From a virus (Duplodnaviria; Heunggongvirae; Uroviricota; Caudoviricetes), in the IMG/VR virus record IMGVR_UViG_2802429224_000004, positions 31,285 to 95,284 of that record: a stretch of 64,000 nt of DNA; one strand, 5' to 3'. Position numbers and translations under genes: made by a program. Of this stretch, positions 4,890-22,597 are shown piece after piece; position 1 is the first letter of the stretch; every line of letters begins with the position of its first letter. The notes under the pieces were generated by a model. The model ran no database searches, was not told where the DNA came from, and saw only the letters and a list, made by a program, of their open reading frames with translations.

Positions 4890-5381
4890 TTATGGAGCTA
4901 CACCCGGCCCCCTAGCTCGTTCTTCAAGCGTACCCTGCACGTTTTGATGGCGCATTCCCGGGGCGTTTCTGATTGAATCAATGCCATTTCTTCCAACGTC
5001 TTCTTTATTAACGGCATTGCTCGCCACCAGAACGCCCCAGCTAGGGATAGCAAAATCAGGAGCGGTTTCGCATGCCTTTACCATATAATCGAAAGTGCTT
5101 CGATTGATCTCATTTGCGTCTGGATTTAACAGGCGAGAATATTGATATTTAGCATTTTCGTTGGTTGCGACTTTATACAGTTCTTGCTGCACCATCGCTT
5201 CAGAAAGTTTAAGACGTTTCATGTCTGAAAGTAACTTCTTGCGCATGGATTCGTCTTGGCTGACAGCAAAGCCGTAAACGTGCCCAAGGTATTTCGTGTA
5301 GTCGGTACAAATCGCCTTTACACTTGATGCTGCATTAACAGTCCCAGCCATAAATAATAACGGTAGTAATAGTTTTCTCAT
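4890..5381 (-). CDS. Secreted protein with Sec signal peptide (sim-locus position)
   Basis: 163 aa; N-terminus MRKLLLPLLFMAGTVNAASS. Confidence 0.5.
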   Translation of the reverse strand: MRKLLLPLLFMAGTVNAASSVKAICTDYTKYLGHVYGFAVSQDESMRKKLLSDMKRLKLSEAMVQQELYKVATNENAKYQYSRLLNPDANEINRSTFDYMVKACETAPDFAIPSWGVLVASNAVNKEDVGRNGIDSIRNAPGMRHQNVQGTLEERARGPGVAP

Positions 5382-5477
5382 TATAACCTCACCTGCCTTT
5401 TAACTCATTTAGGGTACATATTTTCGCCTTTAAAAAAAAGAGGTTATTAGATCCAGTTGTGTATTTATTAAACAGTA

Positions 5478-5494
5478 AGTGCTCTAATAAATTT
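5478..5494 (+). promoter_or_regulatory. C1 operator (Op51-like), 16/17 match to ATTGCTCTAATAAATTT
   Basis: AGTGCTCTAATAAATTT upstream of c4-icd-ant; position counted from the 5381 start codon. Confidence 0.6.
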
Positions 5495-5694
5495 GTATTT
5501 TTAAGTCGCGAATGCTATCTTTTCGCATCATATTGACCTTTTAATCGTTCAGGCTTATAGTTCCCGCCGTCGTAGCAAATTCTGCGACCGGGTTTAGCAG
5601 CCTGAATACTTACGCGGACAACCGCAGATTTCCGATATTGCGGTATTTTTGTGTCCGTAAACCACGTTACGCCCGAATTATGGTGGGGCGTGAT

Positions 5695-5770
5695 GGGGAG
5701 GCTTCGGCCTGCTGGTTTCGTAAGTGCCAGTCTGCTAACCCCGTCACGTCCTGCCACCTGTTTAGCAGCG
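5695..5770 (+). ncRNA. c4: c4-like antisense repressor RNA of immI (boundaries approximate)
   Basis: UUCG-capped hairpin (AGGC-TTCG-GCCT); loop sequence CGTAAGT is complementary to ACTTACG found both upstream (about 5600) and at the icd RBS (about 5791). Confidence 0.35.
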
Positions 5771-5807
5771 GGTCGCAGGTTGTTTATCAACTTACGAGGC
5801 CGTAACT

Positions 5808-6029
5808 ATGGTTAATGCCAATCCTTGCGCACGCCCAGAATTCATCTGGCGTTTCTATTCCTGTAAAAAACACCACTATCACTTCGTTATCGCAGCAACA
5901 GAAGACGAAGCACGCTCTCAATTGCCTGACGGCCCCTGCATTTTTACTGCCCGTTTTTCAACTAACTCGCGCAATTCACTTAGTTACTGGAACCTCCCCT
6001 TCTCTGCCGACGTTCAGGGGGGTTTATGA
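5808..6029 (+). CDS. icd: Icd-like cell division inhibitor
   Basis: 73 aa; overlaps ant start (ATGA); paralog of the ORF at 55150. Confidence 0.55.
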   Translation: MVNANPCARPEFIWRFYSCKKHHYHFVIAATEDEARSQLPDGPCIFTARFSTNSRNSLSYWNLPFSADVQGGL

Positions 6030-7072
6030 AAAAACCTCTCGTCACCCGTAATGAAATAGCCGAAGCGATCGCCCTGCATACAACCTGTATGCCGACACGG
6101 GAGATCCCCGGCGCAATTGCCAACTATTTCATGATAACCAGGCGTTTTTATACCCGAACAGATAAGGCTGTGATCAACAGGCTACTGATAGCCGAGATCA
6201 GGGATTATTTGATTAAACAAGGACGTCTACGTTACGCAACGGTGGCAGCAGAAATGAGAAAGGAGGCGCGCAGAATGACCGGTAATAATTTGAATGTTGA
6301 AAAACCAGCACCTGTTGCTTCAGCTACGCCATCACCAACTGTGAATGTTATCTCCAACACTGGAGACACAATCGACAGCCAGACACTGTTAAAGATGGTC
6401 AATGAAGCGCGTAAGTTATGTGGGGAACCAGAGGTTCGGAACAACAAATTCATCGAAAAAATACTCGACGAATTAGAAGGTGAGGACGGTTACACAAAAA
6501 GTGCAACCGTGCCGCCAGGTGGCGGTACGCCTATGGTTGTCATAACCATGACCTACAAACAAGCCCTGCGAGTCGCCGCGCGCGAGTCAAAAGCGGTCCG
6601 CCGTTCGCTGATCGACAAACTGGAAGAATTGCAGCAGGCAAACTCCCCTACCCCATCGATCCCCCAAACATTACCAGAAGCCCTACGCCTGGCTGCCGAG
6701 TTAGCAGAACAGAAAATGCAGTTGGAACAACAGCTGGTGGCCGCAGCCCCTAAAGTCGATTTTGCCGACCGGGTATCAGTGGCCAATGGAATCCTGATCG
6801 GGAACTTTGCAAAGGTCGTTGGACTTAAGCAAAACGCCCTTTTCTCATGGTTGCGCCAGAACGGCATTCTCATGGCTTTTGGAGCGCGCAAAAACGTACC
6901 GCGCCAACAGTACATCAACGCCGGGTATTTCACGGTGAAAGAAGTGGTGCTGGATGATGAAAATGGCTACCAGATACGGCTGACGCCCCAATTAACGGGT
7001 AAAGGCCAGCAGTGGTTAACTCGCAAGCTACTTGATGCTGGTTTGTTAAAACCAGTGGCGTCCTTGTCTTAA
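6026..7072 (+). CDS. ant1: Antirepressor Ant (Ant1/Ant2 type)
   Basis: 348 aa; C-terminal KilA-C/Ant domain (QTLPEALRLAAELAEQK...GKGQQWLTRKLLDAGLL) shared with KilA and the 55368 ORF. Confidence 0.7.
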   Translation: MKKPLVTRNEIAEAIALHTTCMPTREIPGAIANYFMITRRFYTRTDKAVINRLLIAEIRDYLIKQGRLRYATVAAEMRKEARRMTGNNLNVEKPAPVASATPSPTVNVISNTGDTIDSQTLLKMVNEARKLCGEPEVRNNKFIEKILDELEGEDGYTKSATVPPGGGTPMVVITMTYKQALRVAARESKAVRRSLIDKLEELQQANSPTPSIPQTLPEALRLAAELAEQKMQLEQQLVAAAPKVDFADRVSVANGILIGNFAKVVGLKQNALFSWLRQNGILMAFGARKNVPRQQYINAGYFTVKEVVLDDENGYQIRLTPQLTGKGQQWLTRKLLDAGLLKPVASLS

Positions 7073-16699: not shown

Positions 16700-17896
16700 T
16701 CAGTTAGATCTGATAAATTCAATACGGTCAAAAACTGCTTTAGCAAAATCTTCCGCGGCAATTCGCGCGTTCTTCAATGCATCAGCACTACCAACATACG
16801 TTGCCGGGTTAGCTGAAATAACAGTGTCAAAAGACTCGCCGCAACGTTCAAAACCGTCAAGGCGAGGGAGGACGACATCGAGCATATCCCCACCGAACAC
16901 TTCTTTAGCCAGGCTATGGCAATACTTATGATCTGCCTTGTTACTCAACTTGGACATAAAACCAATGTTAGTCGCAAGCTGGCACTCGCAGCCTTCATCC
17001 GAAATGAGTTTCACCAACTCAGGAAGGCGGGCAACGTATTTAAGCGATGAGTGGAAATCGACAGTTGCTGGCGGCAGAGGTGTAAACAGTATATTGGCCG
17101 AGGCCAAAGCATTTTTCAGGAAGGCGTCAAGGTGAGGACCACTATCAACGAGGATAAAGTCATAATCGCTCTTCAGCTTATCAATCACATTTTCTTTCAG
17201 GACAGCATGGATGTTCTGACCCGGTAGATGCTCATTGCACAGCTCTCTCCAATCGGATGCAATAAAGGCATCGTCAATCGACGCAGGCATAACGTCAACC
17301 CCAGGTACAACAGAAGGAACAATAAACTCCTCTAACAGCTCTTCACGGCTTACATTCTGCAACATAGCCTGTGCAGATGTTGCGTTTACGATACCAATAG
17401 AGTGTTTATGGCTTAAAAACATCGTTGCTGAAGATTGCGGATCAAGGTCAATAACCAGAATCCTTAAATCTTCCATCAGAAGATGAGGGTGGGCACGCAT
17501 TGCATGCGCCAGAGAAACCGTCGATACAGTTTTTGACACACCGCCTTTAAGATTGGAGATGAAAATCACATACGCTTCGCTGTAGCGATCCCGGTATTTT
17601 GGCACTCCGCGGTGTTCATATATGTCAATGATGTTCTGAATTGACATCGCATATTTCATTGAAGAGCCAGCAGGGCGTTTATCGAAAACATAACCCTTTT
17701 CTTCCATTTCACTTACGGCATAGTCAACGTTCGCTCGAGTCAGTAGAGGCAATTTTGCCAGTGCCGCTTTCGCATAGACCTGGTAAAACTCGTTCGCGTG
17801 TAGCTCATCCTTTTGCAACTGTACTTGTTCAGTCAGAACATTGAGCATTCTGTTTGCTCTTTGAGCAACCTTGTGAAGCTGGCTGGAATCACTCAT
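16700..17896 (-). CDS. parA: Partition ATPase ParA
   Basis: 398 aa; deviant Walker A KGGVSKT; operon with parB. Confidence 0.8.
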   Translation of the reverse strand: MSDSSQLHKVAQRANRMLNVLTEQVQLQKDELHANEFYQVYAKAALAKLPLLTRANVDYAVSEMEEKGYVFDKRPAGSSMKYAMSIQNIIDIYEHRGVPKYRDRYSEAYVIFISNLKGGVSKTVSTVSLAHAMRAHPHLLMEDLRILVIDLDPQSSATMFLSHKHSIGIVNATSAQAMLQNVSREELLEEFIVPSVVPGVDVMPASIDDAFIASDWRELCNEHLPGQNIHAVLKENVIDKLKSDYDFILVDSGPHLDAFLKNALASANILFTPLPPATVDFHSSLKYVARLPELVKLISDEGCECQLATNIGFMSKLSNKADHKYCHSLAKEVFGGDMLDVVLPRLDGFERCGESFDTVISANPATYVGSADALKNARIAAEDFAKAVFDRIEFIRSN

Positions 17897-18034
17897 CGAA
17901 AGTCATCCTTTATGCTGTATTTTTGAATTTAATTAAAAATGCTGCATAAAATAATAATGTATGCGTAGATGCTTGTACATAGCATTCTCTGCATGTTTGG
18001 TTCATTTTGTACGATTGAGAGTTACAAGGAGGGC

Positions 18035-18057
18035 ACAAAAAAGCCCCGTTCAGGGGC
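18035..18057 (-). terminator. Rho-independent terminator after the T5orf172-domain gene
   Basis: Minus-sense GCCCC-TGAAC-GGGGC followed by TTTTTTG. Confidence 0.55.
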
Positions 18058-18064
18058 ATCAGTG

Positions 18065-18874
18065 TTATTTGTTAAGAGCTGCGAATAATCGTTCGAAATC
18101 GATAGTATCTATAGCACGCGTTAGCGCCGGAAGTTCAGCCTCAAAGCACCCGTTTCGATCGTAAAAGAAGGGACCGAAGAGCGAGGCATGTTGGATTCTA
18201 CTTCGCCCCAGTCCGGACACACAGTTAAGCCCATTACCGGCTAAAAGGCTAAAAAACTTCTCTGGATTATCGTGGTAAAGCTGGGAATCAATGGTGGCGG
18301 TTAACTCTTCCATAGGGAAGCACACCCGCCCTGTCTCCCAGGGATATTTAGTCCGAAGCGTAAACATCGCTTTCAGCAATTCACATTGAGCGCGGATCGC
18401 GTCAGGTTCATAGCCAGATATGGAGACATAAGCCACATCCCTCATTCCTGCGTCATCTTTGAAAGTCACGATAGAAGTAACATCCAGTTCTTTTTCGAAA
18501 GAGCGAGCAGCATCTACTGGACGCTGAAGTAAATCATTCGACTTAATCCGCTCGAGAATCCCTCCCCACATATCATTTAGATATTCGATATGAGCCAAAA
18601 CCTTATCAAGACACTCTCGTGTAAACCATTCAGTATGCCCGCCACCGGCGCTTTTCTCCCACGGCGCATTCCAGGGGAAAAAGGTTGCGTGTAAAGCCCG
18701 CTCAAGATTAACTATTGCCAAACGCGTACCACGATAGACCCGTGAAAGTGCAAAATCGGGACTCACTTGTAGCCCTTTAAACCGTGCCAATGGACCACAT
18801 GAAATGCCGATTTTAAAAGTATCTCCGTTCTCCGGCACCAGAACGTAGAGGTAGTGTTGTTTCTCTTCTTGCAT
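18065..18874 (-). CDS. T5orf172 / GIY-YIG-like domain protein with uncharacterised C-terminal domain
   Basis: 269 aa; N-terminal pattern YLYVL...FKIGIS...R...L......GHTEWF; ATG start abuts the incA iterons; own terminator. Confidence 0.6.
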   Translation of the reverse strand: MQEEKQHYLYVLVPENGDTFKIGISCGPLARFKGLQVSPDFALSRVYRGTRLAIVNLERALHATFFPWNAPWEKSAGGGHTEWFTRECLDKVLAHIEYLNDMWGGILERIKSNDLLQRPVDAARSFEKELDVTSIVTFKDDAGMRDVAYVSISGYEPDAIRAQCELLKAMFTLRTKYPWETGRVCFPMEELTATIDSQLYHDNPEKFFSLLAGNGLNCVSGLGRSRIQHASLFGPFFYDRNGCFEAELPALTRAIDTIDFERLFAALNK

Positions 18875-18889
18875 ATCAATACCACTGCT

Positions 18890-19166
18890 TGATGAGAACC
18901 GCGCAAATGTTGACTATGCGCGAAAGTTAATGTGAATAGTTGACTATGCGCGATGTGACTACAGTCAAAAGTTGACTGTAGTCGATTTAACTCCACCAAA
19001 AATCGACTATGTAAGATATTGTCGGGAGAAACGTTGACTATACGCGATGAAATGACCCTAAAAGCCATCTCAATAGCGACTTGCAGAATATTGACGCCAG
19101 CAAAAATCCACCAGCGTCAACGAATGTCGCCTATAGTCAACTTCTCGCTATCGCATATAGTCAATA
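18890..19166. repeat. incA-like iteron array downstream of repA
   Basis: About 7-9 copies of TCGCG(T/C)ATAGTCAAC-like repeats in both orientations. Confidence 0.55.
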
Positions 19167-20051
19167 TTATGGATTGCGCTTATGGATCTGGAAGCCGATT
19201 TTCCTGCCGTTTTTTATCTCTGAAAATTTAAGATATTCAATAGCTTCCAAATCTTTCATAGCTTTTCTGATAACGCTATTTTGCACGCTAACGGATGATT
19301 TGAGATTAAGCCTTGCTCTAAGGCGCTCAATGCTGACAGGTGCCGGGTTGGCGGGTAGAGCCTCAAAGAATGTATACAGTACCTTGGCCGTCTCTTTGCG
19401 CCCGAGCTTATCCAGCATCTTCAGCTTCAGGATTCGCTTATAGTCAACATAGTAAAGTTCAGATAGCTGTTTCTGCGGCTGGATCTCGATAACATCAAGC
19501 TCGGTATTCAGGCTGCTATATGCCAACAAGTTGACGTTAATGTTATTGAGATGACCTTTTGCCGCCGGGAAGCGGAATTTGACAACTGTCTGCTGAATGC
19601 GTGTCAGAGAGTCATCAATACTTTTACGGAACGCCTTTGAAAGGCGCTTACGTGGATAGCCGCATCGATCGGCAAACTCGGAGAATGGCAGGGTGATTAT
19701 GCCGTCATCATCAGGTGCGTAGTCAAACAACGCGGAGGTTATGCCCACCCACACCTTAAAATCAGTATCCATATCCAGGCGTGGACCATGTATTTCAATT
19801 CCCTCATAGCCTTCCTGCTCAACAATTTTGAGGCTTGATAGTTCTTCGGTTGCGTTCGTTGTGTTTGTAGTAACTGACGATCCGCGACGTAGTGCCACAT
19901 TGGTAGATTTTAAGGTTGGCACAAACACACCTAAGCGCAACAAAGCGATGGGTTGTATAGTGCTATTGTTATTGGGTTTCAGGCTGTGGATTTCTCCTGT
20001 ATTTCCTGCAACTTCTTCAACGCTAAGGAAGCCTTTATTTTCTTCCGGCAT
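19167..20051 (-). CDS. repA: Plasmid replication initiator RepA (start set at internal ATG; track ORF extends to 20108 from TTG)
   Basis: Flanked by iteron arrays; region QPIALLRLGVFVP resembles P1 RepA as remembered. Confidence 0.6.
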   Translation of the reverse strand: MPEENKGFLSVEEVAGNTGEIHSLKPNNNSTIQPIALLRLGVFVPTLKSTNVALRRGSSVTTNTTNATEELSSLKIVEQEGYEGIEIHGPRLDMDTDFKVWVGITSALFDYAPDDDGIITLPFSEFADRCGYPRKRLSKAFRKSIDDSLTRIQQTVVKFRFPAAKGHLNNINVNLLAYSSLNTELDVIEIQPQKQLSELYYVDYKRILKLKMLDKLGRKETAKVLYTFFEALPANPAPVSIERLRARLNLKSSVSVQNSVIRKAMKDLEAIEYLKFSEIKNGRKIGFQIHKRNP

Positions 20052-20130
20052 CGTGGTTTCTCCATATGTGGCGCGGCCTGGCGTCATCTGGATTGCAGTT
20101 ATCAACAACTGTGAATAGTCAGGCTCTAAA

Positions 20131-20232
20131 ATCGCGTACAGTCAATGTTTCTGTCGCGTATAGTCAACAATAAATCGCGTGCAGTCAACAATAAATCGTG
20201 CACAGTCAACATAAAATCGCGTATAGTCAATG
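20131..20232. repeat. incC iterons of the plasmid origin (5 copies, about 21-bp spacing)
   Basis: ATCGCGTACAGTCAATG, GTCGCGTATAGTCAACA, ATCGCGTGCAGTCAACA, ATCGTGCACAGTCAACA, ATCGCGTATAGTCAATG. Confidence 0.6.
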
Positions 20233-20239
20233 TTGATCC

Positions 20240-20345
20240 CATTTCAGGCCAGAAATGGCGCGGCTTACAGCGATCCGGGATCTTCTTTGGATCTTCCTAG
20301 GTTCTCTTTAGGATCTGTTTATTGGATCTATGCTGTGGATAAGTT
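20240..20345. other. oriR-like origin segment with GATC cluster and DnaA box
   Basis: Five GATC sites within about 70 bp and TTATCCACA (reverse strand) at about 20331. Confidence 0.45.
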
Positions 20346-22580: not shown

Positions 22581-22597
22581 ATTGCTCTAATAAATAT
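22581..22597 (+). promoter_or_regulatory. C1 operator, 16/17
   Basis: ATTGCTCTAATAAATAT at the head of the small ORF-rdgC-dmt operon. Confidence 0.6.

Follow-up and report, generated by a model that had tools for sequence, protein, structure and literature searches.

What does a predicted nuclease gene do in the plasmid maintenance region of a P1-like phage-plasmid, between the control iterons of the replicon and the partition operon? The question is raised by a stretch of 64,000 nucleotides of a Caudoviricetes virus (positions 31,285 to 95,284 of IMG/VR record IMGVR_UViG_2802429224_000004; hereafter the window), which represents a P1-like phage-plasmid of the SJ46/RCS47/JL22 type (98.3-98.9% identity across 4.8 kb). 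P1-like phage-plasmids are common carriers of extended-spectrum beta-lactamase and other resistance genes, and their typing uses two replicon types, IncY and p0111. The original prediction had placed a gene of 269 amino acids (aa) here, and the program-made list of open reading frames (ORFs) does contain it, as an ATG-started ORF at 18065-18874 on the minus strand; the range 18035-18874 first assigned to it is this ORF plus a terminator-like hairpin. As judged from sequence comparisons, the gene is a conserved but optional fourth component of an exchangeable rep cassette, found in at least four cassette types, a description that is apparently new with respect to the literature. The features on which this rests are the following.

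17999 to 20247, no strand assigned: exchanged replicon cassette, with P1-homologous DNA on both sides (99.2% identity left, 94.1% right)
18065 to 18874, minus strand: the 269-aa ORF (PHROG 2876; gp57 of JL22; the '2 orfs' of pSvP1)
18905 to 19165, no strand assigned: incA-like iteron array with core TCGCGTATAGTCAAC, between the repA' stop and the ORF start
19167 to 20051, minus strand: repA', 294 aa from the annotated ATG, encoding a Rep3/RepB-family initiator of 'p0111' type
20127 to 20234, no strand assigned: five origin iterons with 21-bp spacing upstream of repA', seen as sequence repeats
16700 to 17998, minus strand: parA and Ppar region of P1 type, 99% identical to P1

Homology to P1 ends at window position 17998 and restarts at 20248. 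These breaks indicate that origin iterons, repA', incA-like iterons and ORF form one exchanged block, whose 2249 bp stand in for 1491 bp of P1 (incC iterons, repA, incA and a spacer). On the left, the switch occurs 66 bp past the ORF stop, just ahead of the Ppar -35 element and roughly 100 bp before the parA ATG. On the right, it falls within oriR and separates the last incC iteron from the Dam/DnaA part. The par operon is of P1 type, as is the DnaA-box/GATC portion of oriR that starts at 20248. The repA' product shares 42% identity with P1 RepA and about 47% with that of RepFIB, and its PlasmidFinder type is p0111. Thus, while the window does have a gene between iterons and par that P1 lacks, the picture of an extra gene dropped into the incA-par gap of P1 has to be given up: the whole cassette has been swapped, and the iterons and repA beside the gene, taken at first for those of P1, belong to a RepFIB-like p0111 replicon. 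Its layout is that of the P1/P7 IncY replicon (oriR-incC-repA-incA), in which five origin iterons precede the gene of a Rep3-family initiator and control iterons in both orientations follow it; P1 and P7 differ in their iteron sequence, in RepA and in having no gene between incA and Ppar. Replicon replacement in P1-like elements as such has already been described in the literature.

How widely is the gene distributed? We searched 5.8 billion protein clusters with a word-indexed method and 1.84 billion cluster representatives with full HMMER. Among about 15 billion proteins, the full-length family consists of four divergent types: that of the window and three others, P0004 (44% identity), P0009 (28%) and P0011 (29%). 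Loci of the other types come from a Logan assembly (L003), from Salmonella enterica GCA_007478465.1 (L004 and L005) and from a faecal metagenome (L006), and all types sit between repA with its iterons and parA of P1-like elements. In these four deeply diverged cassettes the frame is intact, the length is 269-296 aa and the catalytic motif is kept. A scan of GTDB genomes returned one E. coli-type copy, one unrelated weak match and nothing else. In PLSDB the protein was found in 401 plasmids, always at 90% identity or more, and RepA' at 90% or more in 396. Searching a phage collection with tblastn gave 12 records with the gene, all within the set that matches the p0111-type cassette of the window.

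Comparison of the other loci shows the cassette being exchanged as a unit. The backbones of L003 and L005 are 96-99% identical (gp23 99%, ParA 100%, ParB 98%, UpfB 98%), whereas their cassettes differ (RepA 40% identical, ORFs 29%). The junctions between the two, roughly 100 bp ahead of the parA ATG and some 180-200 bp ahead of the repA ATG, match in position those between the window and P1. The RepA of L003 is 83% identical to RepA' of the window; that of L005 is 83% identical to P1 RepA, and its ORF is a type of its own, P0009. IncY-like cassettes thus occur in two forms, one with the gene and one lacking it. The third RepA type, in L006, is combined with a P7-type par module. Since par modules of P1 and P7 type assort independently of rep cassettes, the ORF lies at the seam between two modules.

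The gene is present in the window, L003, L005 and L006, and absent in P1, P7 and L011, a Salmonella Newport plasmid (NZ_CP077703.1). A housekeeping function in P1 or P7, considered beforehand, does not apply, the gene being missing from both annotated records. Reference P1 has about 190 bp between Ppar and incA iteron 1 (P1 61297-61486; L001 6381-6570), a spacer that is missing in P7 (L059 3433-3541), where 110 bp without an ORF separate the parA ATG from incA; P1 and P7 become homologous precisely from incA iteron 1 onwards. None of the four ORF types resembles the P1 spacer, and tblastn with all four gave chance-level matches. A gene remnant in this spacer was rejected: its DNA alignment with L005 scored 23, the shuffled mean being 19.4 (standard deviation 2.3). 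In L011, whose RepA is 98.6% identical to that of L006, 892 bp of L006 (5129-6020) are replaced by 11 bp (L011 6165-6175). About ten first codons remain (ATGAACCAGACAAACGATCTCTATTTGTAT...); the deletion removed the gene body and the terminator, and the sequence just after the terminator is kept. The gene is dispensable. With the same four-part block, carrying divergent ORFs, in three other lineages and with the deletion in L011, it is, on the comparative evidence, best described as an old but dispensable cassette component and not as a recent insertion. Its ordinary GC content (47.3% against 46.8% for the window) agrees with what had been noted before. The earlier remark that it is not an obvious recent import stands; the insertion into P1 that went with it does not.

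What does the gene encode? The motifs quoted in the original prediction (YLYVL, FKIGIS, R31 and GHTEWF) are all present, and aa 8-85 match Pfam T5orf172 (PF10544) above the gathering cut-off (E=7.9e-6, 26.8 bits against 20). PHROG 681, 'endonuclease', matches aa 4-100 (E=1e-9); the whole product corresponds to PHROG 2876, a family with no assigned function. The protein is divided as follows.

18560 to 18874, minus strand: predicted T5orf172/GIY-YIG nuclease domain, aa 1-105 (Pfam, PHROG, invariant residues)
18494 to 18559, minus strand: linker, aa 106-127, of differing length between types (structure model)
18068 to 18493, minus strand: family-specific C-terminal domain, aa 128-269 (structure model, fold search)

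Residues Y8, Y10, K21, G23, R31, H62, E82, W83 and F84 are invariant across the four types. They include the presumed catalytic-motif residues Y10, K21, G23, R31 and E82, whose roles were assigned by motif order and spacing and not by structural superposition. In the structure model the N-terminal domain has the GIY-YIG alpha/beta fold. About 160 T5orf172-type proteins among the searched representatives match aa 5-105, in the N-terminal domain only. Fold matches in BFVD are phage T5orf172 proteins, including homing endonuclease candidates of the CapR type and ORF88 of phage ICP1 (Odn). The product is probably a modular DNA endonuclease.

The C-terminal domain is another matter. A model built from a five-sequence alignment has a mean predicted local distance difference test score (pLDDT) of 74 and consists of two domains joined by a low-confidence stretch at aa 113-127, with linker values below 50 at aa 117-127; an earlier model from a three-sequence alignment was discarded as too poor (pLDDT 58). 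The C-terminal domain is modelled with a helix (157-175), a strand (183-187), three short helices (188-211) and a hairpin (216-231), an order that suggests a winged helix. Outside GIY-YIG proteins its best fold matches are WH1 domains of Rep initiators. These matches are weak and we take the resemblance as a lead only. As had been stated from the sequence, no recognisable domain is found here: family libraries gave no match for the C-terminal 160 aa, Pfam is empty for the C-terminal domains of all four types, and a PDB sequence search with these domains returned nothing. Among 1.84 billion cluster representatives, the domain was found only in P0004, P0009, P0011 and fragments. A broader family sharing it was looked for with a hidden Markov model of the four domains and discarded, as no further member was found among the 150 best T5orf172 matches. 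Between types, the C-terminal domain is 15-33% identical and the N-terminal domain 34-65%. The C-terminal domain thus appears to be unique to the family and is possibly Rep-WH1-like, which is apparently new with respect to the literature.

If the gene is dispensable, is it still under selection? Variants were counted across the window and 50 loci of p0111 type taken from IMG/VR, RefSeq and phage records, and are distributed as follows.

ORF: 38 non-synonymous, 28 synonymous
repA': 4 non-synonymous, 48 synonymous
parA: 3 non-synonymous, 51 synonymous
parB: 23 non-synonymous, 81 synonymous

Pairwise ratios of non-synonymous to synonymous rates are 0.13-1.3 for the ORF and 0-0.08 for its neighbours. 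The 40 intact copies encode 24 distinct proteins, with amino-acid changes spread evenly across both domains (17 each); many of these are singleton variants that hit sites conserved elsewhere (P14L, G77S, T81A). Ten of the 49 assessable copies are disrupted: by S112* (five loci), W68*, K176* (pSvP1; L013, NZ_MN510446.1 48296-49105), Q228* (SJ46; L050, 103,445 bp, an inducible phage), indels (L010), or an IS200/IS605-type insertion sequence, which in L055 (IMGVR_UViG_2645727563_000002, 5295-7057) replaces 229 bp of the gene, corresponding to window 18352-18580. The 392-aa ORF of that insert, beginning MLRATKVRIYPTPEQ..., is presumably TnpB-like. Short-term constraint on the ORF is relaxed. Long-term retention of frame, length and motif in four types argues for recurrent selection, of the sort that cycles of a homing endonuclease or episodes of conflict would produce, and the population genetics of the gene look like those of a selfish or conflict gene, which again is apparently new with respect to the literature. 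PLSDB contains 391 near-full-length matches, a count that overstates the number of intact genes because tblastn presents nonsense copies as one full-length piece.

The same data could describe a decaying passenger, once functional, functionless now in the p0111 lineage of E. coli and Salmonella and kept only by linkage to repA'. A non-synonymous to synonymous ratio of 1.36, the singleton changes at conserved positions, the 20% of disrupted copies and the lack of an evident promoter are what this account predicts. We nevertheless consider it improbable: about 80% of the copies are intact, the ratio is below the value of about 2.5-3 expected without constraint (an estimate from site counts), and the four deeply diverged types have kept length, frame and catalytic motif, pointing to long-term selection. 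It also describes the present state of the gene and not its purpose.

The immediate surroundings of the ORF raise a further possibility. The control array contains six clear iterons, four inverted (18905-19047) and two in origin orientation (19125-19165). The start codon, said earlier to abut the iterons, lies 33 bp (from 18874) from the nearest one (18908-18923). An array of incA-like architecture is also seen in L003, L005, L006 and P7, and in all four cassette types the last iteron is inverted and ends 21-33 bp before the ORF ATG. At the other end, the terminator claimed for the gene is borne out by a hairpin and T run directly after it.

18033 to 18057, minus strand: intrinsic-terminator-like hairpin and T run, with a similar one after the L006 ORF

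This element, GCCCCTGAACGGGGC followed by TTTTTTGTGC at 18057-18043 on the minus strand, starts 8 nt past the ORF stop and, if it acts as a terminator, would insulate Ppar and parA from upstream transcription.

The fixed site between control iterons and Ppar, with the ATG so close to the last iteron in every type, could mean that the product is an accessory factor of replication or partition, a domesticated DNA-binding protein or nickase whose binding to the incA-like iterons, to RepA or to Ppar adjusts copy number, handcuffing or the expression of par. Covariation of ORF type with RepA type points in the same direction, as does the weak likeness of the C-terminal fold to Rep WH1, a dimerisation and iteron-binding domain; CapR, a T5orf172-related homing endonuclease domesticated as a repressor, would be a precedent. 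Several results speak against such a role. The gene is dispensable, being absent from P1 and P7, deleted in L011 and interrupted by nonsense codons in SJ46 and pSvP1, and its disruption in 10 of 49 copies contrasts with the strong constraint on repA', parA and parB. Window and L003 agree in iteron sequence and their RepA proteins are 83% identical, but identity drops to 33% in the C-terminal domain. A domain that bound its own iterons or RepA would be expected to stay conserved along with them, so this one is not constrained by either. The catalytic motif residues are kept, although a pure binding role would not need them. Of the explanations considered here we regard this one as the least likely.

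The reading that we favour, tentatively and with slightly less than even confidence, is that of a site-specific endonuclease serving the linked cassette in encounters with related elements. It starts from what the comparisons show, namely the domain layout, the motif residues, a strictly syntenic position, a gene type that follows the cassette type, dispensability and relaxed constraint in the short term; nuclease activity, DNA binding by the C-terminal domain, the target and the outcome (drive or exclusion) are inferred. The N-terminal T5orf172 domain would cut DNA and, beyond a flexible linker, the fast-evolving C-terminal domain of winged-helix type would recognise the target. The gene sits at the par-proximal end of an exchangeable cassette, at the boundary of the replication and partition modules, and its product would act selfishly or competitively and not in plasmid housekeeping. 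Its targets would be co-resident or incoming related elements with a different cassette or without the gene. The break could be repaired from the encoding cassette, which would amount to homing-endonuclease-like drive of the linked replicon, or the rival element could be lost. Without a susceptible partner there would be little selection and the gene would decay. We prefer this account because of the conserved motif, the modular layout with a fast second domain, the position at a recombination seam, and the co-occurrence of polymorphism, decay and persistence at one locus.

Known enzymes offer close parallels. GIY-YIG enzymes of the I-TevI and Seg type in T4 begin with a catalytic domain of about 90-100 aa, followed by a linker and, at the C-terminus, a DNA-binding domain; the free-standing genes among them are located between conserved genes and bring about exclusion or co-conversion of adjacent markers. 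The ORF product differs from them in that its catalytic domain belongs to another GIY-YIG subfamily and its putative DNA-binding domain is unrelated; no sequence match between them was found. In free-standing T5orf172 homing endonuclease candidates of ICP1, T5-like and other phages (Barth, Dunham & Seed 2023, PMC10448857), the catalytic domain occupies one terminus and a variable region for DNA targeting the opposite one, an arrangement that is predicted for the ORF product too. These candidates and the ORF alike are intergenic beside essential genes, lie at boundaries of genetic exchange and are patchily distributed among relatives (PMC10448857). This shared set of features, which also characterises GIY-YIG homing enzymes in general, supports a homing-like reading. 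There are differences: 87% of the T5orf172 candidates use CapR, DUF723 or DUF4397 zinc-finger repeats (PMC10448857), whereas the ORF product lacks conserved C-terminal Cys pairs and has its own domain of about 140 aa. No zinc-finger repeats (CxxC...CxC) were seen, C88 being the sole invariant Cys, and Pfam found none in the four C-terminal domains. Furthermore, the candidates are genes of lytic phages, whereas the ORF lies in the plasmid maintenance region of a temperate phage-plasmid, where homing is our proposal.

Several results weigh against the reading that we favour. No pristine empty site was found, and invasion of empty sites is undocumented, because L011 is a deletion derivative and the P1 spacer contains no remnant. 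The P0009 type, which accompanies an IncY-like RepA, is rare (two contigs, and none of 72,556 plasmid records), and gene-less IncY plasmids are common among P1-like plasmids (31 of 55 in PMC9603915); a homing element in active spread should be met more often. A consensus scan found no promoter on the coding strand within 300 bp, in the repA-ORF interval. Finally, the relaxed constraint and the 20% of disrupted copies fit equally well a gene that is losing its function in E. coli.

A more specific version is suggested by Odn (ICP1 Gp88), in which a T5orf172 nuclease is fused to a Rep-type DNA-binding domain, showing that such a nuclease can be directed against a rival's Rep/iteron module in a setting of module exchange (PMC8263062). 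The ORF product resembles it in its Foldseek match to ICP1 ORF88 and in the weak Rep WH1 likeness of its best non-nuclease folds. As a cassette-specific 'replicon weapon', it would use a Rep-WH1-like domain to recognise the iteron region of the rival, or the RepA bound there, and cut, after which the rival would be lost or converted to the cassette of the attacker; RepA occupancy of the iterons abutting the start codon could gate its expression. In Odn, however, the targeting domain is N-terminal and 42% identical to RepA_N of its target PLE (PMC8263062), whereas the corresponding domain here is C-terminal and does not share the sequence homology to an initiator: hhalign of the family against the five cassette RepA proteins gave a probability of 0.1%, that is, no similarity. 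Rep3_N did not match the C-terminal domains even at E values up to 10, and the hhalign, Pfam and PDB sequence searches led us to reject an Odn-like recent fusion to the DNA-binding domain of a RepA. We consider this version unlikely. If true, it would provide a plasmid-borne counterpart of Odn and account for the exchange of complete rep cassettes, in place of single genes, between otherwise near-identical P1-like backbones.

T5orf172/GIY-YIG domains occur in conflict systems, Odn being an example, and so the gene could alternatively be accessory cargo encoding an anti-phage or anti-plasmid nuclease that guards the lysogen from unrelated invading DNA. Defence genes typically evolve fast at the protein level and are often lost, as is seen here, and phage-plasmids are reported to carry such genes (PMC13221032). 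Among the families of PADLOC-DB 2.0, however, none matched at E values up to 1, and NCBIfam likewise yielded none. Defence genes usually move among many kinds of elements and loci, whereas among about 15 billion proteins this family turns up only at a single position of a single element family. Its type follows the replicon cassette, and the gene stands alone, without partner genes. There is accordingly a low chance, in our estimate, that defence against unrelated DNA is its role.

The existence of the ORF was already known, both from database names and from two papers. We found no functional assignment for it in the literature, where two published descriptions list an ORF of unknown function. 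Its labels vary from 'GIY-YIG nuclease family protein' and 'T5orf172 domain-containing protein' to 'terminase small subunit', and some records leave it unannotated. Three 'P1' records (MH422554, MH445380, MH445381) contain it without annotation, and in phage phi456 (OR339795.1, 39982-40788) it is labelled 'terminase small subunit'. This label is very likely an annotation error, because neither Pfam nor PHROGs gave the product a terminase-family match. For pSvP1, '2 orfs inserted between repA and parA' have been reported (PMC6906374). They correspond to the same nuclease gene, in a p0111 cassette, with the K176* nonsense allele; an independent insertion beside an IncY repA was thereby ruled out. 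Replicon labels vary as well: MOB-suite (via PLSDB) types the plasmids L007-L010 and L013, which carry p0111 cassettes, as 'IncHI1B', which seems to be an erroneous label arising from distant similarity between Rep proteins.

A RepA 75.6% identical to that of the L006 type is encoded by an IncFIA conjugative plasmid (L012, NZ_CP027439.1, 4001-4888), with an antirestriction gene downstream and without the nuclease gene. Rep types are therefore shared with ordinary plasmids such as these F-like conjugative ones, and the nuclease is not.

Other control elements were also considered. Reading the sequence by eye for a promoter of the ORF gave poor candidates only. An imperfect inverted repeat, TTGACGCTGG...CTGGCGTCAA, lies among the control iterons at 19085-19115 on the minus strand, about 55 bp after the repA' stop, where it could act as a weak terminator of repA or be bound by a protein; a related copy of it (repeat family D8) is found at 18987-19007. 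The window contains fifteen matches to the P1 C1 operator consensus (ATTGCTCTAATAAATTT, at most 3 mismatches) between 5478 and 60060, with 0.4 expected by chance, a set typical of P1 immunity circuitry. Control of the ORF by the phage repressor was rejected, the nearest C1-operator-like site being at 22581, with none within 3.7 kb. A structured RNA in the region was likewise rejected, the sole match (DUF2800 RNA, E=0.56) being at chance level.

Should the gene be a decaying passenger, less is learned, namely that the p0111 cassette has four parts and that the labels of the gene are inconsistent. If the favoured reading is true, a new DNA-targeting domain would be fused to a nuclease of GIY-YIG type, and conflict of the homing-endonuclease or Odn kind, known from lytic phages and their satellites, would reach into plasmid maintenance regions. 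A nuclease that biases which cassette survives encounters between P1-like elements would be a mechanism behind their replicon swapping and incompatibility.

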